DNA from: Eledone cirrhosa
Lineage: Eukaryota
DNA length: 64,000 nucleotides
NCBI GenBank assembly: GCA_964016885.1
Contig: OZ024761.1
Coordinates: 18,786,001-18,850,000 of the forward strand
Direction: 5' to 3'
Shown here: positions 37,474 through 63,264 of the stretch, one piece after another
How the letters are laid out: the number at the start of each line of letters is the position of its first letter
Numbering within the stretch: position 1 is the first letter of the stretch
Made by a program: the position numbers and the translations under genes
The notes under the pieces: generated by a model
The model's database searches: none
Told to the model about the DNA's origin: nothing
The model's input: the letters and a program-made list of their open reading frames with translations, nothing else

Positions 37474-37510
<37 letters not shown>

Positions 37511-40500: not shown

Positions 40501-41200
40501 CAATACCTTGGGCTGAAGACGGTAATTAATTTTCACCACCTTTGCTTATATTTCAGTCCCCCTCCCCTCGCACTATCTGAACCCTCACCTTCCATGTTTA
40601 GAAAACAACTGGGTGACCCCTGTGGGAATAATTCTGCAGTTTAATTAGAATCAATCACAAAGTATTAAAGATCAATACAAATATATCATCATCACCGTTT
40701 TATGTCCGTTCTTCCACGCTAGCATGGGTTAGACGGGTTGTCCTGTTGTGGGCAGTGTCCGGTCGGCTAACCTTGTCTTGCTCATATGGGAACTGATTCT
40801 GGCTTGATTTCTACAGCTGGATGCCCTTCCTAACACCAACCTCATTTACAGTGTGGGCTGAGTGCTCTTTTGCTGTGGGAGGGTGTGGGGGCATATTGTC
40901 TATATGCTTCAGCTTCGGCTTGTACCCATGGGAGGGGTCGGGTCTTCTGTATTACTGCGTCACGCCAGAGGTCACGGTTGTGTGTCATCGCCTTTGAGAG
41001 GTGTAATTGGGTAACGTCGGCTTTTATCACCTCATCCCAAGTCTTCTTGGGTCTCCCCACTCCGCGGTTTCCATCGACTTCTAGTGCATTGCACCTTTTT
41101 ATGCAGCTGTCACCCTTCATATGCATCACATGTCCATACCAACGCAACCGCCTCTCCTGCACACAGCATTTGATTCCTCTTATGCTCAGTCTCTTTCTCA

Positions 41201-41243
<43 letters not shown>

Positions 41244-43688
41244 TATATGGTGGCTGCCAACTCGTTTTCGAGTACGGCCACTACTTTATATCCATGTAAG
41301 AGAACCCCTACCGATACGCTGAACAAGTGTGACTTTTTAGTCCAGCCAACGACTTGAAAACTGGTACAAACACTACACTTGTGACAATTATTGACACAGT
41401 GCTGGGCCCATGGTACCATGTGACGACAAGTGCAGAGAGATCTCCAGATATAAAGCAATGCCTGTGCCGTGAAGCTTTTATAGTGAGCAAAGGCACTGCA
41501 CAAAGCCAGTCCCACTCTCTTAACCAAGATGATATTTACCAAAAAGAAGAACAAGTCAACATCATTGGATACCATCAGGGTTGCAGGTGTTATATCAGAG
41601 TTTTCCTTCTCCTAGAATTCTGCCTTGACAAAGGCTAAGGGGTCATCTCTCCCGGTGATTTTGGATGGCCATTGACTCTTAAGAGCTCCTTTTCCCTTTG
41701 ACAGGTTTTGTTTTTAGTCCTGAAGGATGTCCAAAGTCACCCTCCTCACCAAGAAACCTTGGTGGGGTTGCCAGTTTAGTCGCCAACGACCCGACCATGA
41801 GACAGGTTGTACTGGTATATATATATATATGTATATATACATGCACATACAGTTCCACATTGTAAATGTGGTTGGTTTTAGGAAGGATATCCAGCCAAAT
41901 TTATAGTCCTTGCTGGAACAAGGTGCAACGTGGCCAGCATTGCTTCCTGGCATGTACGACTCGTCTAACTCGTGCAAACTTGCAAGAATTGACACTAAAT
42001 AGAAATTATTATAATGATGATATATATATATATATATATATATACAATTCCACACTGTAGACGTGGTTGGTGTTAGGAAGGGCATCCAGCTGTAAAATAA
42101 CAGCCTCCAGCCCCAAACAGTTCCGTTGGAGCAAAGTGCGGCGTGGCCAACTGTCTTATGTGGACAACCCATCTAAACCATGCAAGCATGGAAAATAGAC
42201 ATTAACCCTTTAGCATTTAAACCGGCCACATCTGGCCAGAATTTTCTCACCTCTTTCTGTTCAAACCAGCTGTAACCAGCTGCTCATACTTATGTTAAGG
42301 TATTGTTTTCAAAATAAATGATATGAAAATCACATAGATTCGATATTATGTGAGATAAAGTATTTACTGTGAAAATATAATAGTAAATATAGAGTAATGT
42401 AAATGGTAAAGGGTTAAACTGTGATGATGATGACCTCTTTCTCTCTGTTCCAGCTACATACAATGAACATGTCTCCATGGTAGATGAAACTTTTGATGAT
42501 GAACTTACTGACAGGGAGAAGGTGAATGTTTGCCTCTTTTTTTCTCTTTATTTTGAGTGTGTATACAGTGAATGTGTATATTATGTATATTTAGTGTGTA
42601 TATTGGGTATATTTAGTGTGTATAGTCTATATTTAATTATACATAAGTCTATATAGAGATATGGTAACGAAAGGGTTAAGAAGTGTGACTTATACACAAG
42701 TCTATATGGTATTTTGTTGTTGTCCGGTGTAACTTATACACAAGTCTATATGTAGATATGATAATGAAAGGGTTAAGGAGTGGTGTCACTTATACACAAG
42801 TCTATATGGTGAGGTGTGACTTATACACAAGTTTATATGGTGAGGTGTGACTTATACACAAGTCTATATGGTGACGTGTAACTTATACACAAGTCTGTAT
42901 GGTATTTTATTCTTGTCAGGGCTTGCTGAAAATCATTGAACAGTGCAAGACGAAACTCAATTGGTTGAAGGAAATGTTGGATAAGGAGAAGATGGATCGG
43001 ATACTGGACGAGATTAAAATCCGAGAGGAAGTGACCAAGGAGATGATGAAGCAGTTCGTCATTATAGAGAAGAGCTACAGGTGCGTGGTCAGAACTTCAA
43101 CTCACCCCACTCCCCTTTTTGGTTTTGATTTATTTTATAATGTTAGTTAATGAACACACAAGCCAATAACAACAGTTGCCAACAAGCTGGGGATGTCTTG
43201 GTTTAAATACAACAGATTTCTTCTCGAGAAGGATAGAGAGAGTGAAAAAGATATGATACAATTGAACCTTAGTTCATATATATACAGTTGAATCTTAGTT
43301 TATATATATGCAGTTGAACCTTGGTTTATATATATGCAGTTGAACCTTGGTTTATATATATATAGTTGAACCTTGGTTTATATATATATAGTTGAACCTT
43401 AGTTTATAGATATACAGTTGAACCTTGGTTTATATATATATATAGTTGAACCTTAGTTCATATATATACAGTTGAACCTTGGTTTATATATACAGTTGAA
43501 CCTTGGTTTATATATATATAGTTGAACCTTAGTTTATATATATGCAGTTGAACCTTGGTTCATAAATATACAATTGAACCTTGGTTCATAAATATACAAT
43601 TGAACCTTGGTTCATAAATATACAATTGAACCTTGGTTCATATATATATACAGTTGAACCTTGGTTCCTATATACAGTTAAACCTTGG

Positions 43689-43729
<41 letters not shown>

Positions 43730-45331
43730 ATATATATAGTTGAATGTTGGTTCACATATATATATATACAGTTGAACTGGATAAGATGACTCCCCAAAAA
43801 TAAGGCAGTACCAACTCCCCAGCCCTAGATGTGTTTGCCATTCTTTATTTGCACAAAATATAAAACATGGAAATAAAAACTAAATAGTTTTAAAATAAAA
43901 TATTATTATAATCTCTGTTAAATAAACTTAACAAATATGAGATTCAGTAGGAAATAATTGTGGTGGGCTGCTAGAGTTATGGTAAGTGGTGTACAAGTGT
44001 TAGGCAGGCAGTTTCACTGTTTACCTCTCATTGGTAAAGGTTCACATTTTATATTCGGCGGACAAGTCAACCCCTGGTTTTGGAGAGATATTTTTAGGCC
44101 TCAGATGTTGACTTGTATGCCGGCATATACGGTATTTGAAAATAGCAGGCAGTGTCTTTTATTAGAAATGTGTTAAGGAAAGTGTTAAATATGTACATAA
44201 ATGAAATTGGTGACCATTATATTATATTTGTTTTGTCTGGCGCCAGTGAAAAGCTGCGGGCCAATCACCTGGAGGCTGAAGAGAAGTCGGATAAACTGAT
44301 GTCGAAGATGCTAACCTCTGTAACCCATTCCAAGAAAAGATCTTATGAAGAAACTCAGTCTGAAGAGAGAATGGTGCCTCTACATTTATTTGAGGAACTG
44401 CAAAAGAAAAATGAGGTAAAGTTGGACATTTCTGGATTTCTCTGGTTGTTAGGGTGGTGGTGGTGGTGATGGTGTGTGTTGTGTTGGTGGTGCCACTACA
44501 TTTATTTGAAGAACTACAATAGAAGAATGAGGTAAAGTTAGACATGGTAACTCTGGTTGTTAGGGTGGTGTGGTGGTGGTGTTTGCGGTATGTGTTGTGG
44601 TGGTAGTGTTTGCGGTATGTGTTGTGGTGGTAGTGTGTGTTTATGGTAACTCTTTTGTTGTGGGAGTAGTGTGTTGGTGGTGGAGTGTTGTAGTAGTGAG
44701 TGCTGCTGCATTTATTTGAGGAACTACAAAAGGTGTATGAGGTAAAGTTAGACATGCTAACTCTAGTTGTGTGTGTGTGTTGGTGTGTGTGTGTGTGTTT
44801 ATGGTAACTGATTGTGAAAGTAGTGTGTGGTCGTGGTGGTGATGTGAACTTAATACAATGTATGATAAAATAGATTGTATTTACAATTTTATTCTCTCTT
44901 CCTTCTCTCTCTCACTCACTCCTTCCCTCTCTCACTCACTCCTTCCCTCTCTCTCTCACTCACTCCTTCCCTCTCTCTCTCACTCTCTCCTTCCCTCTCT
45001 CACACATCTTTATCTCACTCTCTCTCTCTCAGGAATGTGAGTTTAATCTAGAGAAACTCAACCAACAGCTAGAGTCTACAAAAGCTCAACTGCGCAGGAT
45101 AACCGTTGACCGTTCCATGTTACATTCAGAGAAGACTTCATTACAACTACAACTACAGGTTCCTGTGGTCTCCAAAACGGGGGTAAGTCTCAGACACCCT
45201 TGGTCACCCTATGAACTTTTCAACCAACCCTTGTATATGTTTATATATATTTTAGTCACCAATGTATTCAATATTGTAATGCCCCCATCCCTCCCTAAGA
45301 AATCCAGTATTAAATATGTCGCCATGTTCTA

Positions 45332-45376
<45 letters not shown>

Positions 45377-48173
45377 GTTACCTGTCCTATGATATATATA
45401 TATCATCATCATCATATATATATATATATTCATTGATATTAAATAAATGGAAACTATAAAATATAAAGTTTGTTTTATAAATATTGACGTATCCAGGAAG
45501 AATATCTTAACAGTTCAAGTTTTTCCTGGAAAAACTATCCAGGAAAAACTTGAGCCGTTAAGATCTTCCTGGATATGTCAATATTTGTAAAACAAACTTT
45601 ATATTTTATCTGATGAAAGCGTACCAAAGTTTTGGTACCCTTAAAATATATATAATAGAATAAATATGGTTTTATAAATATAGTTTTCCATTTATTTAAT
45701 ATCATTGAATATTATACTCCAGAAAATCTGTCGAGTGCTTTGAATCAGTTATAAACATATATATTTGTTGAATTACCAACAAATTAAATATCCCTTTTGC
45801 TTATATATATATATATATATATACGATATTAAACAAATGGAAACTATATTTATAAAACCATATTTATTTCATTATACATATTTCAGGGATACCATATTAA
45901 AAATATGGCATGCCTTCATCAGATAAAATACAATATATAACCAGTTTTATAAATAATTTTGACGTACCATAAATATAGCGACCATTAAGGTAGGAGGCTG
46001 GCTTGGTAGTAATATCGTATATCTACTCCAAAAACTTGAGTGCTTTATATCAGTTATAAAATATTTACTTGTTGTAACCCAACAATTTTAAATAAAACTT
46101 TTGCATATATATATATATTGTCACCTATCCTATGACATATTATGTATGTTGTCACTTGTATGTTATTTTTTTTTTTCAATCAGCTTGAAAGCAGCAATAT
46201 TGGGGACAATATTGAACAGGCCAATGTCTTAAACAAACTGACCAGTATGCTGAGGGAGACTCAGGAAAAGCTGGGAATTAAGGTTGGTTTTAAGTATTAT
46301 ATCATATTTGAAATATTGTCCTGGTGTAGGTGACTACAATAATATTTGTTGAGCATCATTAATAATAGTTGAAAATAATGGGGTAGGGTACCCCTGGAGA
46401 TGAAAAAAAAAAAATCCTGGACAGAGGCACTTCGGAAAAATAAAAACTTCCGTCAAACTTTTACTCTTTTATCTGTTCCAGCCATCCGACTGAGGCCATG
46501 CTGGGGCACCACCCTTTTACATATGTTTTGATATATATGTTTATTTATAAAATATTATATATGAGATATGATATTTGTTTATATATAGGATATCATCATC
46601 GTTTAACGTCCATTTTCCATGCTAGCATGGGTTAGACGGGAGTTGTCCCACTTGAGGCAAGGTTGCGCTCATATAGGACTATCTGGCAGGTTTTCTACGG
46701 CTGGTTGCCCTTCCTAACACCAACCACATTTACAGTGTGGAACTGGGAACTTTTTTTCCTTGTTACCTACACAACCACATTACAGTGTGGACTGTCTTTT
46801 TTGTTGTGACACCTACACGATCTCGATCTCATTTATTTGGACTGGATGTTGTGGTACCAACTTTACAGAGGGAGGGTGGTGTTGATGGGAGGATAGGGTA
46901 GTGGTAGTGGATTGGGGTGTATATATGGTTGAGAGGTGCCTACTGACTGTAGGTATCGCTTTGTACATAGGCAAGGGGGGTCTTCTGCATTACTGCGTAG
47001 CGCCAAAGATCTCGGTCCAGTGACATTGTTTTAGAGAGGTGCAAGTGTGTAAGGTCAGAATTTATCAGATCGTCCCAGGGTCCCAGGTTTTTCTGGGTCT
47101 ACCTACTCCGTAACTACCATCAATTTTGATCGCCCTGCAATTTTTTATGCAGCTGTCGTCTTTCATGCGCATCATGTGACCATACCAACGTAGTCTTCTC
47201 TCAAGTAAACAGCATCTGATCCCTCTTATTCCTAATTTCTCACTAAGGTCATTTATGCTTTGCCGTTCACGTATATTACTATTACACATCCAATGGAGCA
47301 TGCATGCTTCGTTCCTTTCCAGTCTGCACGTAATGCCCATGCCTTACTGCCATGTAGCATTGCTGTTCATATACAGGCATCATACAACCTGCCTTTCATT
47401 TTTAGAGAGAAACCTTTTGTGGCCAACAACGGTATAAGCTCTCTGAACTTTTTCTATCCCGTTCTGACTCCATAAAGATATATATTTATATATGCGATAT
47501 ATGTTTATATATAAACTATTATATATGTTTATATAGCTTGTGTTTGTTCTCGTTAGCTTCTGTTAGCTCTCATTAGCTTTCGTTAGCTCTCATTAGCTTT
47601 CATTAGCTTGTGTTTGTTCTCGTTAGCTTTTGCTTGATCTCATTAGTGTCGTGTTTGGCTCTTGTACACAAAAGTTGTTTTCATATTCCAGGAGTCTGCA
47701 GTGAATGAACTGGAAGAACAGCTTGAAGAAGCTGGAGACACTTTTAAAGAACAACAGGAGAGGATAGACCAGCTGGAGAAGGTGGTCAAACTGAATGAAC
47801 TGAAGGAGGTACGGGATATATTTATATGTTCTGGTTGTTGCTGATGTTTTTACTCTTGTGTGGGTCTTTGTGTAGTGGGCCTATTGTGTATGTGTTTGTA
47901 GTGAGACTATTGGGAGTGTAGTAAGGCTGTTGTGTATGTGTTTGTAGTGAGACTATTGGGAGTGTAGTAAGGCTGTTGTGTATGTGTGTAGTGGGACTGT
48001 TGAGTGTGTGTGTATGTGTGGGCTGGGTGCTTTTTGTCGTGACACCGACACGACCACTTTACAGTGTGTGCTGGCTATGTTTTGTTCAGTGTAAGGGAGG
48101 TGTTGCCAGGTGTGGGCATTGTCAGTAAGAGGTGCCTACTAGGTGTATGTTTGAGTCTGGGTGCATGGGAAGA

Positions 48174-48205
<32 letters not shown>

Positions 48206-49095
48206 CGAGGTGGGTCAGAAAAGTTCCAGGACTGATGTCACAAAAGATTTATTTCAAACCCAAACTTCACACTAAGAGTTTTCTCTTTCAAAGTAATCCC
48301 CTGGAGTCTAATGCACTTTTCCATCCTTTTCTGCCACGCTTGCATGCACTCCTGGAAGGATTCTTCCGGGATCCTCCGCAGTTCCGTCGTCTCGGCCTTT
48401 TTGATGTCATCCACATCTTCAAAACGGGTCCCTTCCGGGTCGTACTCGAAGAGCCATGACTTATCACCGGTGATGTCTGTCCCTCGCAAGTCTGATTCGG
48501 TTGAGGATGTCCTGGCACACTTGCATGCGTCGACTCTTCTGGTCATCGTTCAGCAGTTTTGGCACCATCTTTGTGCAGACTTTCCGTATGTCCAAATAAA
48601 TCTTCAGTGAGAATCTTCCAGACACTGTCCCGATTCATGCCCATCTCATTTGCCATCAGTCGAACAGTCAGCCGACGATTGCTACGCACCATCTGCCTGA
48701 CGCGCTCAACGTTGACCTCAGTCCTGGTTGTTGAGGGCCTTCCGCTCCTGGGGTCATCTTCCACGTCCTTGCGTCCTTCTTTAAACCTCTTGCACCACTC
48801 AAAAACAACACGTGAGCGTGACATCGTTTCATCTCCATACACTTGCTGCAGCAATCCCAGTGCTTCTGACGGAGTTTTCAAGTTTGTTCGTTGCTCTGTG
48901 CTCATTGCTTGACAACCTGAAACAGGGGACATGTATATAAAATTATAAAGAAAAAAGTTTGATCGCTGCAGAGAGCTAAGATTACAGTTACATACTCCAG
49001 GGGGATTACTTTGAAGGAGAAAACTCTTAGTGTGAGGTTTGGGTTTGAAATAAATCTTTTATGACATCAGTCCTGGAACTTTCCTGACACACCTC

Positions 49096-49161
<66 letters not shown>

Positions 49162-49793
49162 GTATATAATATATTTTTTCAATATTTTTCTTGTTTCAGA
49201 CATCGACAGAATGCAAGGTTTGTCTAGAAAGATCCGAAGCTGAGTTCCAGGCCAAGATAATGGCTGAAAAGCAACCGACAAAGAAGATACGTCCGGAAAG
49301 TTCTACAGGTACATTCGTTACTCTTCCTTATCAAGGCGCAGAGAAAAATCCGAAACATCTTACTAGGAGGATGGCAGCACAGAGCCAGCACAGCAAAACC
49401 GCCAACGATCTGACTACCAGAAGTGTCCGTGGTATTGTTGTGGAGAAAGCCGACCAGTCTCGAGTGCTACGGGTGTTGTTGAACAACGTAACCAACACGA
49501 GGGAGCTGGTCGCAACCCCGACCAAGACCAGCATGTTGCGCATGAAGAAGTTCTCTCCCGTGAAACAGTCCAACATTGAAAACAGCCCGCCGGCTCACTC
49601 CGCTGGTAAAGGGGGCCGAAAGAAGGAGAGCCTGAGGCATCGCCTGTTTGCGCCGATCTGCTCCAATATCCAGCAGTTTGGGGACAAGAGGAAGAAAGTG
49701 GAGCAGAAGACACGGCGCCGCTCTGGTTTGGCCTGCAGCAAACGGGTATCTCTGGAGATAACAAGGAAATATAACTTACGCACCAAAAGATAG
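31871..49793 (+). CDS. KIF20A: Kinesin-6 family motor (KIF20A/MKLP2-like), short isoform ~953 aa. Exons: 31871-32041, 33114-33369, 34285-34472, 34942-35017, 36493-36696, 37264-37375, 37949-38020, 39037-39183, 40244-40521, 42454-42521, 42920-43080, 44247-44415, 45033-45182, 46184-46282, 47692-47808, 49200-49793
   Basis: [11 protein letters not shown]-loop [11 protein letters not shown] (kinesin-6 type), long loop-6 insertion, [76 protein letters not shown]. All junctions are GT-AG and in phase; AATAAA at 50336 is followed by a GT-rich tract. A versus B orthology is not resolved. Confidence 0.9.
40690..41200 (-). mobile_element. RTE-clade LINE 3' fragment
   Basis: [24 protein letters not shown]...[15 protein letters not shown]...[10 protein letters not shown], followed by a 3' UTR and (ATG)n tail. 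Confidence 0.8.
42203..42417. mobile_element. piggyBac-type MITE (TTAA-CCCTTTAGCATTT...AAAGGG-TTAA); further copies near 275-445, 4000-4194, 10854-11220, 32736-32893, 35276-35480, 49851-50058, 59692-59905
   Basis: Shared internal sequence, CCCTTT/AAAGGG termini and TTAA flanks; termini match the piggyBac at 53897. Confidence 0.85.
43255..43780. repeat. Intronic tandem repeat gttgaaccttggttta(ta)n
   Basis: About 20 copies with a variable TA tract. Confidence 0.9.
45865..45930 (-). ncRNA. Type I minimal hammerhead ribozyme motif in a TA-embedded Penelope-type remnant
   Basis: Minus strand: tattttat-CTGATGA-aggcatgccatatt(ttt)aatatggtatccct-GAAA-tatgta-TA-atgaaata. Stems I and II pair; stem III is minimal. 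Confidence 0.65.
46592..47473 (-). mobile_element. RTE-clade LINE 3' fragment
   Basis: [14 protein letters not shown]...[25 protein letters not shown]...GRPRKTWD; same 3' UTR and tail as the 40690 copy. Confidence 0.8.
48206..49096 (-). mobile_element. Internally deleted mariner DNA transposon
   Basis: ~100-bp imperfect TIRs (cgaggtgggtcagaaaagttccaggactgatgtca / tgacatcagtcctggaactttcctgacacacctcg) flanked by TA; transposase remnants [35 protein letters not shown] and [14 protein letters not shown]; frameshifted. Confidence 0.92.
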
Positions 49794-50335
49794 GCAGAAG
49801 ACCCCCCCCCTCTTCCCAACATCTTCATAGCCTTTATTTTTTTTTTTTTACCCTTTAGTATTTACATTACTCTATATATACGATAGTCTTTTCATGATCA
49901 AGGCTTTATCTTATATAATTATCTCACATAATATCGAAACTGAGATTTTGATATTATATATTTTAAGAACAATACCTTAACATCAGTATGAGTGGCCGGT
50001 TACAACCAGTTTAAACAAAGTGAGAAAATTTCTGGCAGGTTTAAATTCTAAAGGGTTAAATAATTTCCTCCATTGCTTTCCATAACATAACATCATCTGG
50101 GGTTAACTGGGCTGGGCTGGGCTGGGTAGGGTTTGGTACTTGGGATATACCTGAATATATTAACATGTCATTTTCCTAAAATGGAATCATTTTCATGCAT
50201 CTAATTAACCCCCCCAGTCTTTTTTTTTATCTTCAGGGGTGTGTTGTGTGTGTGTATACAAATATATGTATGTATATATATGTATATATATATATATTAT
50301 GTGTGTGTGTAAATAATCATGATCCTCATTGTTTT

Positions 50336-50460
50336 AATAAAGTTTCACCTTAAAAAGACGTGTGTAGGAGTGTGTGGTTGTAATGGTGCTATTGGTGTGT
50401 ATGTGGTAGTGTGTATGTGGTTGTAGTGTGTGTGTGGTAGTGTGTATGTGGTAGTGTGTA
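50336..50460 (+). terminator. Polyadenylation signal and GU-rich downstream element of the short kinesin-6 isoform
   Basis: AATAAA at 50336-50341, ~540 nt after the stop at 49793, followed by a long GT-rich tract. Confidence 0.6.
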
Positions 50461-51831
50461 TGGGTAATTTGAGTTAAAGAATGTTTTTATCACATATCAT
50501 TGTACATAGTGATGATATTAGTGGTGGTGATGATGGCTGTGGTGTTGGCACTGATGGTGATTGTTGGTGTTTGCTGATGACGCAGTGGTGTTGCTGATGG
50601 TGGTAGTGTTGGTTGTGATATTTGTGTTGCTGATGATGCTGGTGGTGTTGGTGTTTAAGATGATGATAGTGTTGGTGTTGGTGGCGATATTTGTGTTGCT
50701 GATGATGGTGTTCGTGTTAGCTGATGATTGCTATGAATGAATGCATGAAAGTTTTTAGTAAAGTCATAAATTGATAGAAATAAATTTGTAAATACAATTT
50801 ATTGTTGTTTCTTTTTTTCCTTTTGTTGTTGTAAAGCTGTGAAGTCTTCACCTGAAGTCGTTACTTACCTTGTTTTTTGGTTTGATTTCAGGTGAAGACA
50901 CACACCCAGGTTGGTTTTACCGTCTTTTTTCTCTGTGTAATGTTGTCTTGCAATCTCAGCCACCAGCTGTCCTCAAGTGAAATACTTCCAAATGAAATGT
51001 TACAGCTCACACCTAATGCAGGAGGGTTTTTTTTTTGATGTTTTAATGATAGGGGGACCCTGCCCTATCACATTGTTACAGCTCACAGCTATGTAGGTTT
51101 AGTTGACCACATACAAGGTTATATCTCATAGGTTTCTCGGGTGTTTTAACCTGTGCTGGCCTTTTTTTCTTCAGTAAAATGACTATTTTTTTTTTTTTTT
51201 TAACTTTTATTACCAACACATATCTGAATGATAGACAAATGTCACATCAATAAACTAGTAACCCCATCTAGCTTTGATGTTATGAACTGTTGGAAAAGAG
51301 TTCAAACGGGTTATATCTGAATGATAGACAAATGTCACATCAATAAACTAGTAACCCCATCTAGCTTTGATGTTATGAACTGTTGGAAAAGAGTTCAAAC
51401 GGGTTAGGATGAGTTATCTTGTCCGTGGCACTGGAATGCATACATGTTAGGATGAGTTATCTCGTCTGCAGTTCTGAATACTGAAGAGATTAATAAGAGG
51501 CCCAGTTCTATCATATATATATATATATATATGATCAACCACATTTACTGTGTGGACTGTGTTAGGAAGGACATCCAGCTGTGAAAAAAACCTGCCAGAG
51601 ATGTTTCTGTGCGAGTGAGGCATGGTCTCCCCCACCATTCCCGCATCAAATGGTGAATTGGCAGTATCGGAAGAGGGTTGGACGCCAAGCTTTCTAGCAT
51701 AGTTACGTCCCTTTACAGTCTGAGTTCAAATCCTACCGAGGTTAACTTTGCCTTTCATCCTTACGAGGTCGATAAAATAAAGTACCAGTAATGTACTGAG
51801 TAATTGCTGGCCTTGTGCCTAAAGTGGAAAC

Positions 51832-51884
<53 letters not shown>

Positions 51885-53896
51885 TCATATTTTATTAATT
51901 GTTTGACCCGAATAGCTTGGTTGTTTCTATGGCTTTGCGGATAATGGTTTAACCATCGTCTCAGTGTGTTTGGCCTTTTAACGTACGTTGTTGCTCTAGT
52001 TCACTAGTTTCTATGGAGCGCTTGCCACACATCTCGGAAATTGTTTTTCGCTAATTTCCAAAAGCCGAAATGCGATTCTCACTAATTTATATCATCATCA
52101 TCATTTTACGTCCGCTTTTCACTGCTTGCAAGGGTGGGACGGGAACTGATTCTGGCTTGATTTCCACAGCTGGATGCCCTTCCTAACACCAACCTCATGT
52201 ACAATGAGTACTGGGTGCTTTTTTTTTTTTTTTTTTTTTTTTGCCATGGCACCTCCACAACCACTTTGCAGTGGAATGATATGGACACCAGTCCCTATCA
52301 TCTCATTTCTACAGCTGAGTAAACTGGAGCAATGTGAAATAAAGTGTCTTGCTCAAGGAAACAAAACATCACCCAGTCTGAGAATTGAACTCACAACCTT
52401 TCGATTGCAAGGCCAATGCTCTAAGCCATGTGCCTCCATTATATACATACATAACATCTCAATGAATAGAGATCACTAAAATAATCACATTCAGAGAAGC
52501 AAATAAAATAGAGAATATCTTATACAAAATCACTGAGGGGTAAATAACTATAAAGCATCTTTCCCTAGGGATAAAAAAAATTATCCTTAATGCAGTTTCA
52601 ACATCCAAAGAATAACATATAGCCTTTCAATAGATAGATATGGCCATATCAATTTCTTGAAGGGCTATCTGTCGGTTTAACTGCTTCCTATAGTCATTTA
52701 TTTCATAACTTTCTTTGGTGTTTTAATGATAGGGGCCCCAGTCCTAACATATTACAATTTACAGCTATGTAGGTTTAGCTGACTTCCTAAGGGGTATCTC
52801 AGATATTTTAATAATAGGGTCCATCCACACTCCTTCCACGAAAAGCAACATGAAATAAATTGACTGACTGAAGAACACACCTTCCAAAATTATTTGAAAG
52901 TCATAAACGTTTTTCCATTAGAAATATGGTAACATAAGAGTCAAAGTGTCTATATTTATCTAAAAACCTTCCATCATAATTTTATGTAAGCACATTTGTT
53001 AAGTTATGTTCCAAACACCATCTTAATAATGGGAAAGTTTGTTATATTACTAAATCCTTACAAATTCTTGATTATTTTCAAAATTATTCGACAATCATAG
53101 GCAGTGTCTTTCATAAGAAACAGGTTAACATGTTTCACTATCATTATTGTTTAACATCCATTTTTCCATGCTAGTATAGGTTAGACAAGTCCTGTTTGGG
53201 TGACCATGTCTTGCCCATACAGAACTCTTTCTGACTTGGTTTCTACAACTGGATGCCCTTCCTAACACCAACCACATTTAGTCTGGAATAGGCATTTTTT
53301 TTGTTGTGGCACCATAATGGCCACTTTATTTAAAAACTGTTCATAATTTTATTTAAAAACATTTATGTCCCAAATATCAACATAATGAGAAAGTTATATT
53401 ACTAAATCCTTTCAAATTCTTATTTTTAAATTTATTTGAAAACCCTAAACAATGTCTTCATAAGAATATGGTAATGAAAGAGTTAAATGGTAAATTTGAT
53501 CAGCCGTGGAGTTCATTGTGATATGGTAGGATCATAAAGTTGGGGTTTCAATTCCCTGACTAGATGGTGCATTGTTGTCTATTTCACATTGCTCCAGTTC
53601 TCTGGCAGTTGAGAGAGTTAGCCCTGGGGTGGACTAGCTTCCCATCCAGAGGAGTGAGGAACTCGCAGACACTTAGCACCATATAAAACTAGGATGAGCC
53701 CTATACACGGGTTTGTTTAGCCCTATAGGGTCACATTATATGAGATGAATGAAAAAAAAAAAAAATGTGGGTTACATTCTAAATTATGTAAACTTTTATT
53801 TACTGGTATATGATGGTGAGTTATCTATAGTAGATTTACTTGTGGATATATCATTGTGAACATTTGCAGTATTAGAGTAAAGACCTTAATATTTAA

Positions 53897-55245
53897 CCCT
53901 TTAGCATTCACAAACCGACATTTAATACCACACGGCGATCTCCTTCTAAAAATAGACATTGACATCATCGAGATTACTGCGAGATAAAGCCCTTACGCGC
54001 GAAAATTAACTATTAGTATAGTTAAAGAACTTGCGATAACATGTGTTTTTAACGTTGAAAGTGTAACATGGCTTCCGAAAGTAGCGACAACGAATTTGAA
54101 GGTTTTACATCTGACGACATTCGAGATTAAAAAGAAACAAGATAATATCAGTGATTTATCTTCAAACGAACCAGATATATTTATTTCTGATATATCTGAT
54201 AGTCAAATCTTCTCTTTCACTTTCAAAGTGACTGACACCATTGAAAAAACACCAATGTGGTTGAAAGAAACAACACCGATATATGTTTCGGATTTTACTG
54301 AAAATATTGGACCACAACACACATTACCACCCGATGCTAAAGCTCTGGATTATTTTTTTAAATTTTTACCAGAAACTTTCTTCGAAGTTGTGGCAAACGC
54401 TATGCACAACAAAAAAAACTCTAATATCGGAAAACCCAATCTGCCGAAATGAAAGCGTTTTTTACCATAAATATTATGTTTGGTATTAAACAATTTCCAT
54501 GACTGTGGAATTATTGGAGTACTGATATAAGGTTTGGTGACCCTTATATATCTAGTATTATGGCAAAAACGAGATTCATCAAATTAAACCAGTATTTGCA
54601 TCTGGTTGATACTTCAAATGCCCCTGGTAGAAATGAATCAAATTACAACCCACTGTACAAAGTACGACCATTAATTGAAATGTCAGAAAAATTTAAAAGT
54701 GTGTATAAGCTTATATATTGGGAACATTCTGTTACGTAAATTTACACCGTACATTTACAGAGTACATTGCCAATATTATTTTGACTGGTGAAAAGGTTTT
54801 ATACATTTTTTTCAATGAAAATATTTGCCTGGAATGTAGAGAAAGACTAAAACCTTGTACTGATTACACCTGCATTTTTAATTAATTCACCTGTTCGGAA
54901 AACTGCTAGAATTGATGGAAATCAGCATCTAGGTCATTATTGGATTTTTTTGCAACAGATCTTACAGATAAGGCAGATAAAGTTTAAATGTTTGTGTTTA
55001 TCCATAAAGTTATTACTTTTACACCTGCCCATAAAAGTCAAATTTAACAAAAAAAAATCAGGTAAAAATATATAATTGTAAATTATAGTTATTTAAACAT
55101 CTACTGACAACATTTCAAGTCTGCACATAGAAAATTAAAGTAATTACAAACAAATAAAATTGATAACCCTCTTGAGTATAATTAAGTGAAAATAATGCGA
55201 ATAGATGAACATGACATTTGACAATTCAATGTGAATAATAAAGGG
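53897..55245 (+). mobile_element. Defective piggyBac transposon
   Basis: TTAA on both sides; TIRs ccctttagcattcaca / tgtgaataataaaggg; broken transposase MASESSDNEFEGF..., ALDYFFKFLPETFFE, EMKAFF..., NYWSTD..., RFIKLNQYLHL, PLYKVRPLIE. Confidence 0.88.
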
Positions 55246-55474
55246 TTAATGTGATTCAGACACATTAAATATTAAAGCAACTTAGAATTGCTGAATGAGC
55301 TGTGCTTTCAGGCAGTTTGGTTTTAAAAAGATTAATCTTACAGCCTCATCTGTGCCTAGCTCACTCAAGGGGCCATTATGTAGGACTCAACTCTAAACCA
55401 TGTGGTTGCTAAACAGCAGCTATTTTTGTTTGTTGTTATTTGTGTTTTTTTTTGTCTTTTTCTCTTCTCCACAG

Positions 55475-58400
55475 ATGCCAACCAGCCATTGGAGGGTGTT
55501 GCAGAATTTGAACTGCGTGAACGTGCTTTGATTAATGGTTACAACGCTGAGATATCCAAATACAAGCTTCTAATTCGAGAACTTCGCCAACAGCTGGGCT
55601 TTCGTAACACCAGTCACCTCTCGCCTAGTAAATGTCTGCGTCCCGACTTTAACACAACCCTGGAACAGAACCAGCTGAAGCAGTATTTACTTCGACAGGT
55701 GAAGAAACTCCAAGGGGAACTAGACAAGAACTCCCAGTGTGTGTCCGAGGTACTTCACACCCTGGAAGTTAAGAAGGCCACAGAGGTGGATCTGGAACAG
55801 AGATTGGCCAAAGAAGCAAGGGACCATGAGCTTGCGAAGACTGTTGTGTCGGAGTTGAGAGAGAAGCTGAAGAAATTGAAAGAAAGGTGCCGTTCTTCAT
55901 CTTTCGAGGCAGAAAAAACTTATCTGACAATCGACAGCGAGTTGTCTAACAATGATAATCGCCTCTCTCTTTGTATGCTGGACAAAAATGAGGAATCTGC
56001 ATTGGGTGTCGGAGAATCCATTGAAAATCAGTCTGGTCCTAGTGATGTCGGCAAGAAGCAAGGTGGTAAGGAGACGGAGGGGTTAAAAACAGCAAAGAAG
56101 AAGAGGAAGCTTATGGAGCAAGAGAAACCTCTTACAAGTATTGAGAACCAAACGACTCCAAAGCTTCTGTCAGTGTTTGATAATGAGAACTTGATGGATA
56201 AGATAATAAATAAGAACAAGGAGTTGTCTAAATTGCAGGAGAAACTGCTTTCGTATTCAGAAGTAGATGCGAAACTCCAACAGAAAACGAAAGAAAACGA
56301 GGTACTTTCTGGCAAAGTTGAAAAGCATGGTCTTCTCGAACGTGATCTCCATAAGAAAATGAAACAACTGGAAGAGAAAGTAGAAAAGATAGCCGTGATG
56401 GAAGTTGAAATCGAGAGCCAAGTTGCGATCATTCATCACCTTCAAAGTGCAGTGGACGAGAAGTCTAAATTGTTGTCTGAGCTTCAGGCTCAGAATGCTG
56501 GGGGAGGAGGAGGAGAAAGTCCTGTCTTGAAACGGAAAATGGAAGAGATGCAAACTGTGATGGAAGGTCTGCGAGAAATGGTTGACGACAGCACCAAAGA
56601 ACTGGCGAAAAATAATGAAAAAATCTCTGATTTGGAAAGCAAAGAGACAATGGTGTCAGTTCTTCAGACTGAATTGGAAGCGTTGAAGTCTAACGAGAGT
56701 TGCCTGAAATCTGAAGCTAAGATTAAGACCGATTCTCTAGAAAAGAGACTTGATGAGTTGCAGGCCGAAAAAGACAAGGTTTGCAAAGAAAAAGACTATT
56801 TGGAAACGGAAGTAAGCAATCTTAAGGAACTTGTTGAGAAGAAGACGGAGGAAATGTCGCTGTTGAAATCACTGTTGAAGGCCAAAGAAATGGAGAGTGA
56901 GAAAGAAAACGAATTGGCATTCAACAACTTGAAGAATTTGTTAAGCAACACAGAGAGCGAACGGGACAACACTGTGATAGAATTGGCCGAAACCAAGGAG
57001 AAAATGGTAGTTAAAGACGAGGAAATTGATCAACTGATAAAAAAGATTGAGAATTACGAAGAAGAAATGGAGGACTTGCAAAATGAATCGAAAGCTGTCG
57101 AGGAAAAAAGTAGCATTGAAAACGAAGCTTTGAACGACGTTGTTAACGAGATGAATAGCGAGATAGCTAACATGAACGTACTGAAGGCAAAACTGAAGAA
57201 AGAAATAGCAAACATTGCTGAACATCTCAAATCTTTAAAGATTGAACTGGCTTCAGTTCAGCAACTGAGGAGCAATATGGACGACAACATAAAGACCAAC
57301 ATGGCAGAGCTGAAGTCTAAAGTCAACGAAATTGTCGATTTTACTGCTGTTGTTGCTCGCTGTGATCAGTCAACGGTGACTGACTTACAGTCAGAGATGG
57401 TGCCAGAACGGAAGAAGATTGAGCTTCTGAATTTGAAGATAATCAATGTTGAGAAAGAACTGCAAGACAATGTTGCGATTAGAGAAGGTTTTATGACTGA
57501 GATCTCACACATGGTGACAGTACTGAAGGATAAAGACCAACAGATTGAAGATTTAACCAAGAAAAATGACCAGCTTTCTCAGAGGAAATCTTCAGACCCA
57601 GAGGAAGAGACAAAGAAAAAGAAGGTAAGCCTTATTGGAAGTGAGGCAGAGTTTGCACAGTTGAGCAATAAGTTGTCACCTGAAAAACAGCCCCCTCTGG
57701 TGTCATCTGAGAAAGAGGACCAGCAGGAGTCAGTACCAAGGAAGCCACTCCGACAGTCAGTACCCCCATCAAAACCTAAAAGGCAGTCGCTATGTAAGAA
57801 ACAAGATGGCTGCATGCAGATATCACCTGAGAAGCAGGATAGAGAGGGGCAGGCAGCTCCCGAGAGGCAAGATGGTGACACACAGACATCTCCTTTGAAG
57901 CAGGATAGAGACAGGAAGACAGTTCCCGAGAGACAGGATGGTGACACACAGACATCTCCTTTGAAGCAGGATAGAGACAGGAAGACAGCTCCCGAGAGAC
58001 AGGATGGTGACACACAGACATCTCCTTTGAAGCAGGATAGAGACAGGAAGACAGTTCCCGAGAGACAGGATGGTGACACACAGACATCTCCTTTGAAGCA
58101 GGATAGAGACAGGAAGACAGCTCCCGAGAGACAGGATGGTGACACACAGACATCTCCTTTGAAGCAGGATAGAGACAGGAAGACAGTTCCCGAGAGACAG
58201 GATGGTGACACACAGACATCTCCTGAGAAACAAGATGGAGAAGTTACGAAGATGGAAACAAGTTGTGAGAGTTTGGCAGACAAGCAACACGTGGACCTGA
58301 TGAAACAGGAACTGGAGTCGTTGCAGAAATACTATGATGAGCAGAAGTCGTTGAATGATGCCATCAAGCTGGAACTGGATGGGGTCAAATTGAAACTGTC

Positions 58401-58684
58401 CGAGGTGAAATCTTCGTATGAGGCGGAGAAAAAGGTCACACATCGATTGCGTTACAACCTGGAGGATGTGAGGAGTAGCTTGAATGAGGTCCTTCATTCG
58501 TACGAGCAGTTGAACCTATCCCGAAACTCTGTTCTTGGTCGTGACGATGACAACAACAACAACAACAACAACAACAGCAACAGCATTGTCCAAGCAAGCT
58601 CAGATGATCGGCCTGAGGTTGACGAGCAAACGGTAAAGTCGTTAATTAACAAACTTACTCTGTCACAACAGGACATCGTTAAAG
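55475..58684 (+). CDS. 3.2-kb coiled-coil exon of the long kinesin-6 (KIF20B/MPP1-like) isoform
   Basis: Long polypyrimidine acceptor ...ctccacag|AT (phase 1), open frame of ~1070 E/K/L-rich codons, donor AAAG|gtaaat. The phase matches the internal donor ACAG|gtacat at 49308/49309. Confidence 0.85.
57802..58240 (+). repeat. Coding 66-bp (22-aa) tandem repeat QDGDTQTSPLKQDRDRKT(V/A)PER, six TQT units
   Basis: Period 66 bp (gatggtgac at 57871, 57937, ...); V and A variants alternate. Confidence 0.95.
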
Positions 58685-60141
58685 GTAAATACTTCATCGT
58701 TGCGTGTTTTTTTCTTTTCCCCCCTACCCCACCCCTATTTCTACCTTGGTATCTCTCTGTAAATGTCCTATTGTTTCTACCCCAGAATAGGTATACTGCA
58801 TCCCTGTGTGTCATAAAGTGCGACAAAAAGGGTTGATGCCAGGAGAGGCTGCCAGCTGTAAAACACTGCCTAAAGAAAAAAAAGTGTTTATATTTATCTA
58901 AAAACTTTCCATCATAATTTTATGTATAGAAACCCTTGTTAAGTTATGTCCCAAGCATCAGCTTAATTATGAGAATTATTTGAAAATCAGGCAGTCTCTT
59001 TCATTATAAGTATGGTAAAGAAGTGGTTATGTTCTAAATACCAACTTAATAATGTGGAAGTTAGTTATATTAATAAATCCTTCCAAATTCTTGATTATTT
59101 AAGAAATTATCAGAAAACTATAGACAGCGTCTTTTATTAGAAATCTGGTAATTGTTTCTACTATTGGCACAAGGCCAGCAATTACCCAGTGCACTACTGG
59201 TACTTTATTTTATTGACCCCGTAAGGATGAAAGGCAAAGTTAACCTCGGCGGGATTTGAACTCAGAATGGCAAGGGCCGTAACTCTATGCGTCAAAGCAT
59301 GGCGCCCGACTCTCTACCGATACTGCCAATCCACCACCCTTAGAAATATTATAATCTTATTAGAAATATGATAATGAAAGGGTTAAAGCCCTTAAGCTTA
59401 GATGTAGAAGCTCCTGCATCTTGAGACACATGAGGCAGCCAAAGTGCTCCAATGACCATGGTCAGTTGCATCTATCAATACATTGTTCCAACTTTTGTTG
59501 GCAGGTTTCAGGATTCTGTGGGTCGTCTGTCACCAGTTCATCTTGGGACATCCTCTTTGCTCCTTTCCAGGTATGTGGGGGTACCAATACAGGACCTGGT
59601 AAGCATGTCTCTCATTCGGGAGTCGTGTGACATGTCTCAACCAGTTAAGTCAATGCTTGTACATGATGTTAGACACATGTTGGTGGGTTTGTTAACCCTT
59701 TAGCATTTAAATCGGCCGTATCTGGCCAGTGTCCTCTCACCTCTTTCTGTTCAAACCGACTGTAACAAGCTGCTCATACTGATGTTAAGGTATTGTTCTC
59801 AAAATAAATAATATCAAAATCTCAGATTTGATATTATGTGAGGTAAAGCCTGTACCACAAAAACACAGTAGTATGTATGGAGTAATGTAAATGCTAAAGG
59901 GTTAAGAGACTTGTTGGTGATGAAGTCATCATCCCACTTGACGTCAAGAATTGTGTGCAGGTATTTGATATCAAAAGCATCTAATTGGTTCTCTTGGCTG
60001 GTCACCACACTCCACGTTTCACACCCGTACAGGAGCGTTGAAAGCCCTCACACCCCACCCCGGGTGTCATATTTTTTACTGTATTTCTACGTTTTATTGT
60101 ACTCATTTTAGTGTATATCCCCACCTTCTATTTCAATGTAG

Positions 60142-61790
60142 CCCTCCGAGAGCAGGGAGAAACTTGGAAGAAGAAGTACGAAGAGACATCAATGGAATTA
60201 GTGAAAGAACAACAGAAGCTTCTTGACAGTCAACAGTGTCGGTCGGAAAATTTCTATACCAACTACGAAAACAAGAAATTGAAGAAAGAGCTGGCATCGA
60301 TTGAAAAACAACTGAAAGAGCTCCAGTCCCAGCGCGAGATTCAGCAGATCACCATGGAGACGGAACAGATGACCAAGGATTTAATTGAGGAACGGAAGCG
60401 AAGCGAGGACCGTCACCTGCAGGAAGACCTGTCGAAGCTGCGACAGCAACTGCAACTGGCTAAGGAGAACAGCGAAAAGTACTCGCAGCTGAAAATCGAG
60501 GTGGAACGATTGAGAGAAGAAAACGTTGACCTGAAGAAACAGAAGTTAGATGTTGTGGGTGATGACGGCGATGACAAGAGTAGTAAGAAAGGTGATGATG
60601 ACAATGAAGGCGATGACGACAATGATAAAGGTGATAATGAATATAAAGGTGATGGCGACGATAAAGACGATGACGATGATAAAAATGATGATGACGATGA
60701 TAAAAATGATGATGACGATAAAGGCGATGATGATGATATTGATGATGGCAATGATTGTGAGGTTAATGAGGATAAACAAGACTGCATGTCTGGTGAGGAG
60801 GGCATGTGTTTAGACAGCAGGTTAAGGGTTGTTGTGGGGGTGAATTTGGGGGAGACGACAGATGCAGCAACAATAATAACAACAACAGCAAAAATCTCTG
60901 CTGCTACGCAGACAGACCCTGACATTGAGAAGGCGAAAACCTGTGACGCATGTGAACAGTTGAGGGCTGAGAATTCGAAAACCCTTGGCATGTCTGAACA
61001 GTTGAGGGCTGAGAATTCGAAAACCCTTGGCATGTGTGAACAGTTGAGGGCTGAGAAGACAGAAGCCCTTGGCATGTCTGAACAGTTGAGGGCTGAGAAG
61101 ACAGAAGCCCTTGGCATGTGTGAACAGTTGAGGGCTGAGAAGACAGAAGCCCTTGGCATGTCTGAACAGTTGAGGGCTGAGAAGACAGAAGCCCTTGGCA
61201 TGTCTGAACAGTTGAGGGCTGAGAAGACAGAAGCCCTTGGCATGTCTGAACAGTTGAGGGCTGAGAAGACAGAAGCCCTTGGCATGTGTGAACAGTTGAG
61301 GGCTGAGAAGACAGAAGCCCTTGGCACATGTGAACAGTTGAGGGCTGAGAAGACAGAAGCCCTTGGCATGTGTGAACAGTTGAGGGCTGAGAAGACAGAA
61401 GCCCTTGGCACATGTGAACAGTTGAGGGCTGAGAAGACAGAAGCCCTTGACACTGGCGAACAGTTGGGGGCCAATAAGACAGGGACCTGTGACACATGTG
61501 AACAGTTGAGGGCCGAGAAGCAACAGCTGACTGATAAACTGAAATTAAGTGAAAGAAAGGTCCTCGCTTTCGAAGAAGACACTGCTTCCAATTCCCCTGC
61601 CCTTCAAACGTCTTCATTATTGTCGAGCCGTGTAGGGAGCAGTCGACAGTTACGACGAGAGAAGATCCTGGCCGAAACTGCCAAAATGGAAGCTGAATTT
61701 GCCCTAAAGGTTGCAAATGAAAAGATTCTCTCATTGACCAAAGACGTAGAGACACTCCAAGAATCAAAATGCCAGGATCCTCCGCCAAAG
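60142..61790 (+). CDS. 1.65-kb coiled-coil exon of the long kinesin-6 isoform (Asp-rich tract, 14-aa repeats)
   Basis: Acceptor aatgtag|CC (phase 1, matching the previous exon), open frame, donor AAG|gtaaag (phase 0). Confidence 0.85.
60951..61520 (+). repeat. Coding 42-bp (14-aa) tandem repeat (C/S)EQLRAEKTEALG(M/T), 13 full copies plus a partial
   Basis: Period 42 bp from tgtgaacag at 60951 to 61497. Confidence 0.95.
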
Positions 61791-61829
61791 GTAAAGTTTT
61801 AACATTCTTCTTTTTACATTTAACTCTTT

Positions 61830-62350
61830 TTACTGGTTTCACTCTTTAGACCGTGGCCATGCTGGGGCATCAGCCACTTATTTTACTGGTTGCACTCATT
61901 AGACTGTGGTCGTGCTGGGGCACCAGCCACTTATTTTCCTGGTTTAGGTCATTAGACTGTGGCCAAGCTGGGGCATCAGTCACTTATTTTACTGGTTTAG
62001 ATCATTAGACTGGCCATGCTGGGGCACCAGCCACTTATTTTACTGGTTCCACTCATTAGACTGTGGCCATGCTAGAGCATCAGCCACTTATTTTCCTGGT
62101 TTAGATCATTATACTGTGGCCGTGCTGGGGCACCAGCCACTTATTTTACTGGTTTAGATCATTATACTGTGGCCATGCTGGTGCACTAGCCACTTATTTT
62201 ACTGGTTTAGATCATTATACTGTGGCTGTGCTGGGGCACCAGCCACTTATTTTACTGGTTCTGCTCATTAGATTGTGGCCATGCTGAGGCACCAGCCACT
62301 TATTTTCCTGGTTTAGGTCATTAGACTGCTGCCATGCTTGGGCACCAGCA
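61830..62350. repeat. ~59-bp intronic tandem repeat
   Basis: Unit ~actgtggccatgctggggcaccagccacttattttactggtttagatcattag, about 9 copies. Confidence 0.9.
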
Positions 62351-62435
62351 ATAGAGTATATTTTGTTAGAGATCCAGTCACGAGAAAGTGCTAAGTTTCT
62401 GCTGACATTTCAACATTAATTCTTTGCCACTTTAG

Positions 62436-62571
62436 GAAGTTTGTTCTGTGAGGAAGACATCCAGCAGCTGCCAAACTGACGAGATTACCATCGGCAAAGA
62501 TAAACCAAATGTCAAGAATTTGAAGGAGGAACTTGAAATGGAGAGGATCTGTCTTACAATTCTACAAGGAG
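62436..62571 (+). CDS. Exon of the long kinesin-6 isoform
   Basis: tttag|GAA phase 0; EVCSVRKTSSSCQTDEITIGKDKPNVKNLKEELEMERICLTILQG; G|gtaata phase 1. Confidence 0.8.
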
Positions 62572-62798
62572 GTAATATGTGATAATATTTCACAATTTCC
62601 AGACCAAACCCTATGAAACAGCCAATAGTTCTATGAGGGTTGGCTGAAAAGTTCATAAGCTGATCAAGATACTCTCATGGAATGACCAAATGAGGTTTAT
62701 TTTTCAACACAGTCCCTGTTGAAATTAATGCATGCAAGATTTCACAGCTCTAGCATCGCTTTTTCATATGCAGCCTATGAACTTTTCAACCCACCCTC

Positions 62799-62832
<34 letters not shown>

Positions 62833-63138
62833 ACAATATTTAAACATACAAAATTCATAGGCTGACCAAGATACTCTCATGAAATGATCAAATGAGGTTT
62901 ATTTTACAACATAGTCCCTGGAAAGAAACAATATAGTTATTAATAAGAAGAGTTGAAATTAATGCATATAAGATTTTACAGCTCTAGCATCACTTCTTCA
63001 TAGTCAGCCTAAGAACTTTTCAGTCGGCCCTCACATACACACACACACACGCACACATACACATACACACACACTCACACACATCGGTATATAGGTTGTT
63101 TTTCTCTATATTTTCACTCCCATTTTCTATATTTGCAG

Positions 63139-63264
63139 AGCTTAAGGATAAGTCTTCTTTGATTGAAACCCTAAAAATGTCACTGAAGGACCAGGACGAT
63201 GCCATTATAAAGTTGGAAAACCTGCTGGGTAGGAAAGACGATAGGATCCTCACCCTTGAAGAAG
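63139..63264 (+). CDS. Exon of the long kinesin-6 isoform (gene continues beyond right edge)
   Basis: tttgcag|AG phase 1; LKDKSSLIETLKMSLKDQDDAIIKLENLLGRKDDRILTLEE; G|gtatgt. Confidence 0.8.

Follow-up and report, generated by a model that had tools for sequence, protein, structure and literature searches.

One Composite Exon in a KIF20-Type Kinesin-6 Gene of Eledone cirrhosa Gives a Short Form and Very Likely a Giant Form

We describe a KIF20-type kinesin-6 gene of Eledone cirrhosa (GenBank assembly GCA_964016885.1, contig OZ024761.1, forward-strand positions 18,786,001 to 18,850,000; this whole 64,000-nucleotide [nt] stretch is the window, and coordinates are positions within it) whose shared part ends in a composite exon with an internal splice donor at 49308/49309. 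Read through, the donor leads to a short protein of 953 amino acids (aa); spliced to a large stalk exon at 55475, it leads to a protein of 3,266 aa. We are confident that this is one gene with two isoforms, of which the short one is transcribed and the long one is very likely spliced from the same donor. The original prediction, made from the letters of the window, had proposed the arrangement for this locus; the phenomenon proves broader than it guessed, and the fork is not peculiar to Eledone but common to bivalves and medusozoan-like animals. Because it is common to these, the fork is likely old, as judged from protein comparisons.

Exon models were guided by tblastn with proteins of Octopus and Argonauta, the closest named proteins, and were required to be consistent in splice phase and open frame; further exons were taken from neighboring stretches of the same genome (3.0 Gb). 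Contigs from four sequencing runs of one study were compared over 46100-57800, three of the runs being genomic DNA and one, X4, RNA-like; contig depths were not used for ranking isoforms. The gene lies on the + strand, with its first exon from 31871. The short model has 16 exons and the long model 28 (3,266 aa complete, 2,499 aa inside the window), both with 0 internal stops and with consistent splice phases throughout; the sizes first predicted, about 953 aa and at least 2,499 aa, were exact. An end of exon 13 at 45158, used in draft models of 945 and 3,258 aa, was replaced by 45182, and trees, profiles, and pairwise scores were computed on those drafts, which differ by 8 aa outside the motor and the tails. 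The features are as follows.

31871..47808, + strand: 15 shared exons (motor, neck, and first coiled coil), 756 codons; tblastn, splice phases, and open frame
31871-32041, 33114-33369, 34285-34472, 34942-35017, 36493-36696, + strand: shared exons 1 to 5
37264-37375, 37949-38020, 39037-39183, 40244-40521, 42454-42521, + strand: shared exons 6 to 10
42920-43080, 44247-44415, 45033-45182, 46184-46282, 47692-47808, + strand: shared exons 11 to 15
49200..49308, + strand: shared 5' part of the composite exon; acceptor before 49200, entered in phase 0, phase-1 donor CAG/GTACAT at its end (slash, exon-intron boundary)
49309..49793, + strand: read-through part, the 161-aa basic tail of the short isoform; K-Y-N-L-R motif, then TAG at 49791-49793
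49794..50800, + strand: likely 3' untranslated region of the short isoform; X4 contigs up to 49881 and over 50364-50777, end point inferred
50336..50341, + strand: AATAAA of the original prediction, present; RNA-like cover extends beyond it
50757..50840, + strand: likely main intronic polyadenylation (poly(A)) signal cluster (AGTAAA 50757, CATAAA 50765, AATAAA 50779) and U-rich downstream element; a weak hint from one study
55475..58684, + strand: stalk exon of the long isoform, 3,210 nt; in-frame 66-nt repeat, 6.2 copies
60142..61790, + strand: second large stalk exon; acidic tract and in-frame 42-nt repeat, 13.6 copies
62436..62571, + strand: exon of the long isoform; phase fit, flanked by exons matching Octopus long proteins
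63139..63264, + strand: final exon of the long isoform within the window; splice phases and Octopus matches

Beyond the donor the frame stays open for 161 codons to the stop at 49793, exactly as predicted, and encodes a tail with 37 lysines or arginines against 10 aspartates or glutamates. At the stop frequency of the intron such a run has a chance of about 2e-5. Open reading frame length was rejected as proof of coding because, among the other 26 donors, one reads through 412 codons of simple repeat into a microsatellite; another reads through 103. Conservation carries the case. Composite exon and tail match the end of the O. sinensis RefSeq KIF20A (964 aa) at 59% identity over 202 columns, the tail matches Argonauta at 40% identity over 165 columns, and the same tail ends the short proteins of O. 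sinensis, of Argonauta (1013 aa), and of a cephalopod-like species (1000 aa, on Logan contigs of 3.3-3.6 kb). Six bivalve proteins keep it as well: a profile built solely from their tails places 4/4 cephalopod tails above all shuffles (Eledone, 23.4 bits), and three sequence blocks of the tail are common to cephalopods and bivalves in DNA that is intronic for the long form. The O. bimaculoides model P0004 has a tail piece between the composite and stalk exons, with the tail blocks at the same place, and tail-bearing short forms stand on many independent transcript-sized contigs in oyster and a cephalopod-like species. Because the tail is conserved in this way, which the original prediction had proposed as a check, we take the read-through to be real coding sequence. 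Mollusc short tails and long forms both end in a basic L-R-x-R motif, with no other similarity; it may be a shared binding or targeting motif.

Transcription of the short form is seen in a 3,157-letter X4 contig, letters 2478-3157 of which match 49198-49881 and so cross the donor; its upstream length agrees with the 2,268-nt spliced coding sequence plus 211 nt, and one X4 contig of equal depth (15) covers exon 47692-47808 nearly to its end. As this contig is spliced, RNA-like, and crosses the donor, the short form is transcribed in Eledone, on contigs of one study whose RNA nature is inferred from their spliced pattern. A second X4 contig (50364-50777) continues past the AATAAA at 50336 and stops at the signal cluster, which is followed by a stretch of 63% U, where DNA contigs go on to 51102. 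The main end of the short mRNA is therefore probably at 50780-50800, some 450 nt beyond 50350, as these contigs hint. The AATAAA first proposed as the end is thus present but probably not the main one.

For the long form, the phase-1 donor (ACAG/GTACAT) is in phase with the acceptor at 55475 and the upstream donor at 47808 is phase 0, precisely as predicted. In the gene models of O. bimaculoides (RefSeq; a partial 2,192 aa) and O. vulgaris (2,727 aa) the composite exon is spliced straight to the stalk exon, and the O. sinensis short and O. vulgaris long proteins have the same residues before the fork. In the long proteins of cephalopods, bivalves, and gastropods, the opening motif of exon 55475 comes after the motor, which bears out a second conservation check of the original prediction; a gastropod-like 2,380-aa protein (Logan contig of 7,357 nt) and many mollusc RefSeq models have the motif fused to the motor. 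Four X4 fragments lie inside the stalk exon, within 56152-57647. Eight further exons follow within 11.9 kb beyond the window end, the last holding a KIF20B-type C-terminal motif, and the long form has about 2,480 aa after the fork. From these comparisons, donor 49308 is very likely also spliced to 55475 to give the 3,266-aa form. The best 120 of 917 matches include long KIF20 proteins (1,780-2,970 aa) from molluscs, annelids, a nemertean, a priapulid, arthropods, echinoderms, a hemichordate, amphioxus, a tunicate, and cnidarians. The in-frame tandem repeats inside the Eledone stalk exons (57817-58224, 66 nt × 6.2; 60949-61520, 42 nt × 13.6) are absent or much shorter in Octopus orthologs, several hundred residues having been gained in the Eledone lineage.

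The locus belongs to the KIF20 subfamily rather than to KIF23/MKLP1, as it groups with KIF20A/B and is without the Arf-binding tail domain: the MKLP1 domain PF16540 has no match here and six elsewhere in the genome. The O. sinensis and O. vulgaris orthologs carry a PF00225 kinesin motor at residues 48-470, and the window model (945-aa draft) agrees with the former at 73% identity across 973 columns. The motor match covers 423 residues against a 327-position profile, with an insert of about 90 aa relative to KIF3-like proteins. Such an insert would fit the long loop 6 insertion of kinesin-6 motors (PMC5909929; papers are cited by PMC number). This is the only complete KIF20-type kinesin-6 gene in the genome. 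A second KIF20 gene supplying one of the forms was ruled out, as the tail and stalk exons are each single-copy in the genome, and the unplaced contig C1636 (30 kb examined) copies only exons 1-9 plus an inverted three-exon repeat. That copy (C1636:254465-272086) is 90-97% identical, introns included, to window 28.8-41.2 kb and is followed by the inverted three-exon copy together with short tandem duplications within exon 9; it is a truncated duplicate or a rearranged haplotig.

The same fork is found in distant animals. Short and long proteins of Mytilus edulis are 99.8% identical over 870 aa and then split; in Magallana the figures are 99.7% over 798 aa (short form from Logan contigs, long form from RefSeq), and two medusozoan-like pairs, so labeled from their grouping with Sanderia malayensis, share 100% over 828 aa (both on transcript-sized contigs) and 99.9% over 772 aa (long member partial). 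A Branchiostoma belcheri pair is 92% identical over 890 columns, its short member being an ab initio "hypothetical" model. The first tail residue is Gly in 9/9 short forms measured, as read-through of G/GT demands; at the fork of the long partners stands Asp, Glu, or Gly, every codon beginning with G. Between a shared anchor and the fork lie 60-78 aa (exactly 73 for three bivalves and for amphioxus, 72 and 78 for the medusozoan-like pairs; the fork points of two cross-species pairs were placed by eye), and the fork is always in phase 1. The long form is likely the ancestral architecture.

Several observations count against a general switch. Thirty protein clusters, viewed through at most 15 members of each, divide into 5 with both forms, 3 with the short form only, 21 with the long form only, and 1 with a short form that has the long C terminus. 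Within that sample, Argonauta and a 23-member cephalopod-like cluster show only the short form, and the short form was not found in echinoderm, tunicate, priapulid, crayfish, Acropora, scallop, and RefSeq amphioxus clusters. The amphioxus short model is not in RefSeq isoform sets, the medusozoan-like tails are just 11 and 15 aa, and mollusc tail profiles match 0/3 of the amphioxus and medusozoan-like tails. Two sets of candidates were discarded: 727-aa crayfish proteins, which are C-terminal fragments, and short forms of Centruroides (P0178/P0188) and Montipora (P0140, P0288, P0290), which drop the stalk and keep the long C terminus by a different mechanism.

The relation to vertebrate KIF20A and KIF20B was examined with a motor tree of 29 rows (long-branch arthropods and the tunicate left out; KIF23-like and KIF3-like outgroups from the Eledone genome). 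A single clade (100/100) unites vertebrate KIF20A and KIF20B with a third short paralog, no invertebrate joining one of them alone, and a 62-row tree (quick mode) agrees; the outgroups stand on long branches and amphioxus is not sister to vertebrates. Duplication of KIF20A and KIF20B after the split from invertebrates is thus supported by the best tree of the motor sequences; a constrained tree with invertebrates beside KIF20B alone has a p value of 0.0545 in the approximately unbiased test (p-AU). The single kinesin-6 outside KIF20A plus KIF20B that the original prediction expected is what the best tree gives, and the KIF20B grouping is not rejected.

At its C terminus the long form is truly KIF20B-like by profile: a profile of the motif built from invertebrates places 15/15 KIF20B, 0/12 KIF20A, and 0/18 third-paralog termini above all shuffles, and the Eledone terminus scores 30.9 bits (shuffle maximum, 5.9). 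The likeness of the short form to KIF20A is confined to size and end point. The mollusc tail profile matches 0/12 vertebrate KIF20A tails and 0/18 third-paralog tails, and a KIF20A tail profile matches 1/10 mollusc tails, which is shuffle level, so that homology of the mollusc tail to those of KIF20A (sought in both directions) or the third paralog was set aside as undetectable by profiles. The prediction of a KIF20A-like and a KIF20B-like form therefore stands for the long C terminus and the short size and not for the short tail.

The third short paralog (P0152, P0154, P0159, P0164, P0217, and others) is a clade distinct from KIF20A in sharks, ray-finned fish, amphibians, and a turtle, labeled "KIF20A" by NCBI in sharks, gar, salmon, frogs, and turtle. 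Zebrafish kif20bb is possibly a member of it. Published counts, in the parts available, give vertebrates three kinesin-6 genes including KIF23. Some protein-level hints point to an equivalent fork in vertebrates. The tail of the third paralog begins with Gly 66 aa after the anchor in 3/3 fish measured. Of the KIF20B sequences with a PP..KK-type motif, 60/61 have G, A, or V right behind it (5/66 are without the motif), and alternative KIF20B models part from each other at this point, which is comparable to the fork. KIF20A isoforms part at the aligned start of the composite exon; the available part of PMC5794171 has nothing on the last KIF20A exon. By eye, a pre-fork segment seemed to be shared in vertebrates, but a profile of it from KIF20B matches 0/12 KIF20A and 3/18 third-paralog sequences and gives no support for KIF20A.

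These comparisons suggest a history to which we would give an even chance: the KIF20 gene of the cnidarian-bilaterian ancestor would have made a short MKLP2-type and a giant KIF20B-type protein through one phase-1 composite exon; vertebrate genome duplications would then have fixed each form in genes of its own, KIF20B for the long one and KIF20A with the third paralog for the short one, the RNA-processing switch giving way to separate promoters. The original prediction had likewise proposed a preduplication state later partitioned between paralogs; the vertebrate clade (100/100) agrees with it, and the partition is plausible, with the p-AU of 0.0545 for the alternative. That the long-stalk KIF20B architecture predates vertebrates is strongly supported by its distribution among the sequences.

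Convergence is a serious rival to the partition, if one we would put somewhat short of even, and is compatible with a two-isoform locus. Here the ancestor would have had the long form only, and short forms would have been truncated separately in molluscs, medusozoans, and vertebrates at the end of the first coiled coil, where structure would favor it. The lack of cross-matches among tail profiles fits this (KIF20A 0/12, third paralog 0/18, amphioxus and medusozoan-like 0/3, and the reverse 1/10), as do the weak reach of the KIF20B pre-fork profile, the invertebrate clusters without a short form, and the p-AU of the constrained tree. Against it, fork and anchor are equally far apart in bivalves and amphioxus and nearly so in medusozoan-like animals, the fork being always in phase 1; the third paralog begins its tail with Gly at 66 aa; and KIF20B models diverge at a comparable point.

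A very improbable alternative at the locus itself is a pair of genes, one for a 953-aa KIF20A-like kinesin and, downstream of it, one for a coiled-coil protein that lacks a motor and is driven from a promoter inside the 6-kb gap, donor 49308 being a relic. O. sinensis RefSeq divides the locus in this way (KIF20A of 964 aa and a separate 1,925-aa "myosin-2 heavy chain-like" gene with its own first residues), and a Dreissena isoform of 2,411 aa has the stalk motif at residue 469 rather than 948, so that N-terminally shorter forms are annotated. The joint 49308->55475, for which the original prediction had looked to reads, is not among the 15 of about 1,880 joints listed, and X4 has no cover over 55484-55874, although we do not count that gap as evidence against the junction. 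X4 carries no RNA label on its record. These points, the gap apart, weigh against a single gene with two forms. The phases of donor and acceptor agree, however, the two other Octopus models join the exons at this very junction, and the stalk motif is fused to the motor in the gastropod-like contig and the RefSeq models cited above; an alternative first exon like the O. sinensis split start finds nothing above background in the intron (best score, 14/31). Still less credible is a functional long form alone, with the short RNA a by-product of no function from leaky intronic polyadenylation or a retained intron, for although long introns often leak, 21/30 invertebrate clusters show just long forms, and medusozoan-like tails are very short, the 161-codon tail keeps its three blocks between cephalopods and bivalves, recurs on many independent transcript-sized contigs, and is retained in place in P0004. 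We thus retain one gene encoding both architectures, as first predicted, on the composite exon, the single-copy exons, and the RNA-like read-through, with the junction itself not seen in the Eledone reads.

In the two-isoform gene, skipping of donor 49308 would let the frame run 161 codons to the stop, the RNA likely ending near 50780-50800, and use of the donor would remove a 6.2-kb intron with the tail and the poly(A) signal and add 12 more exons. The choice is likely a competition between splicing at the donor and intronic polyadenylation. The donor GTACAT differs from the 5' splice donor consensus GTAAGT at +4 and +5, and the poly(A) signal lies about 1.5 kb downstream. Secreted and membrane IgM and lamin A/C likewise set an internal 5' splice site against an intronic poly(A) site, read-through giving a distinct C terminus; those proteins are unrelated, and the KIF20 choice shifts length by about 2,300 aa. 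By analogy with vertebrate work, the short form would act like MKLP2/Subito, as a midzone motor whose basic tail would attach to microtubules or membrane, and the long form like KIF20B, as a long cross-linker at the midbody. The MKLP2 tail is described as binding Mad2, regulating microtubule binding, and having a lipid-association motif (PMC5940148), and KIF20B as affecting abscission timing (PMC5909929).

The long form resembles vertebrate KIF20B/MPP1 in its kinesin-6 motor, very long stalk, and homologous C-terminal motif, but it is an isoform rather than a separate gene, has 3,266 aa against about 1,800, and is not a one-to-one ortholog in the best tree. The short form shares with KIF20A/MKLP2, which brings the chromosomal passenger complex to the midzone, its size class (780-960 aa) and a coiled coil ending at about the same aligned point before a short basic tail; it differs in having no detectable tail homology and in being made by read-through of a live donor. 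Drosophila Subito, which stands outside the compared data, is likened to it by description. The third vertebrate paralog is also short, with the shared anchor motif and the Gly at 66 aa, but is a clade apart from KIF20A whose tail the mollusc profiles do not match. In fungal SKI7/HBS1, an ancestral gene made two proteins by alternative processing and duplicates later kept one each (PMC3597508); that case, in the part of the paper available, is mostly one of alternative 3' splice sites and is proven by complementation, whereas in Eledone a composite terminal exon is involved and the partition would be a probable one at most. Our literature search, which did not cover subscription papers, found no report of an alternatively processed two-isoform KIF20 in invertebrates. 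Databases already hold both forms under differing names and not as a described switch.

Around the composite exon, the introns on either side hold decayed DNA transposons (48200-49080 and 53950-55100; Mos1-type helix-turn-helix, mariner-like, and DDE_Tnp_1_7). A YdjC-like deacetylase gene (PF04794; 20405-27467, minus strand) stands in head-to-head orientation to the kinesin, whose start codon is about 4.5 kb away, with a possible shared promoter region, and a tandem array whose unit measures about 6.3 kb, seen as repeating open frames, starts soon after the gene (about 21-80 kb beyond the window end). Elsewhere in the genome, an intronless 889-codon frame (L014, C28:62368001-62374000) encodes a kinesin like KIF23/MKLP1 that has the Arf-binding domain; PF16540 also matches five other places, one near another kinesin exon on C2, and from its sequence the frame is likely an intact retrogene beside a spliced parent. 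Two further intronless kinesin frames of 765 and 720 codons (L017 and L018, on C10 and C2) are KIF3-like, a family label given by eye.

The available text of the literature calls KIF20B vertebrate specific (PMC9581516), has its long stalk evolve in vertebrates (PMC5909929), and gives the kinesin-6 count as one for worm, two for fly, and three for mammals (PMC5374676); one of these three papers ties three kinesin-6 genes to the building of a complex nervous system. Long-stalk KIF20 proteins with the KIF20B C-terminal motif occur in cnidarians, molluscs, arthropods, echinoderms, and amphioxus, and the view of KIF20B as a vertebrate innovation therefore needs revising whatever the fate of the partition; if an ancestral switch is the true reading, KIF20B is no such innovation. 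A switch would also explain why one invertebrate gene appears in databases now as KIF20A, now as KIF20B, and now as two genes. In human KIF20B, the conserved C-terminal motif marks a likely binding site. Trading a 161-aa tail for a 2,480-aa stalk on one motor and one promoter, the switch would offer a testable handle on what the stalk does, through separate knockdown of the two forms in oyster, cephalopod, or jellyfish embryos.

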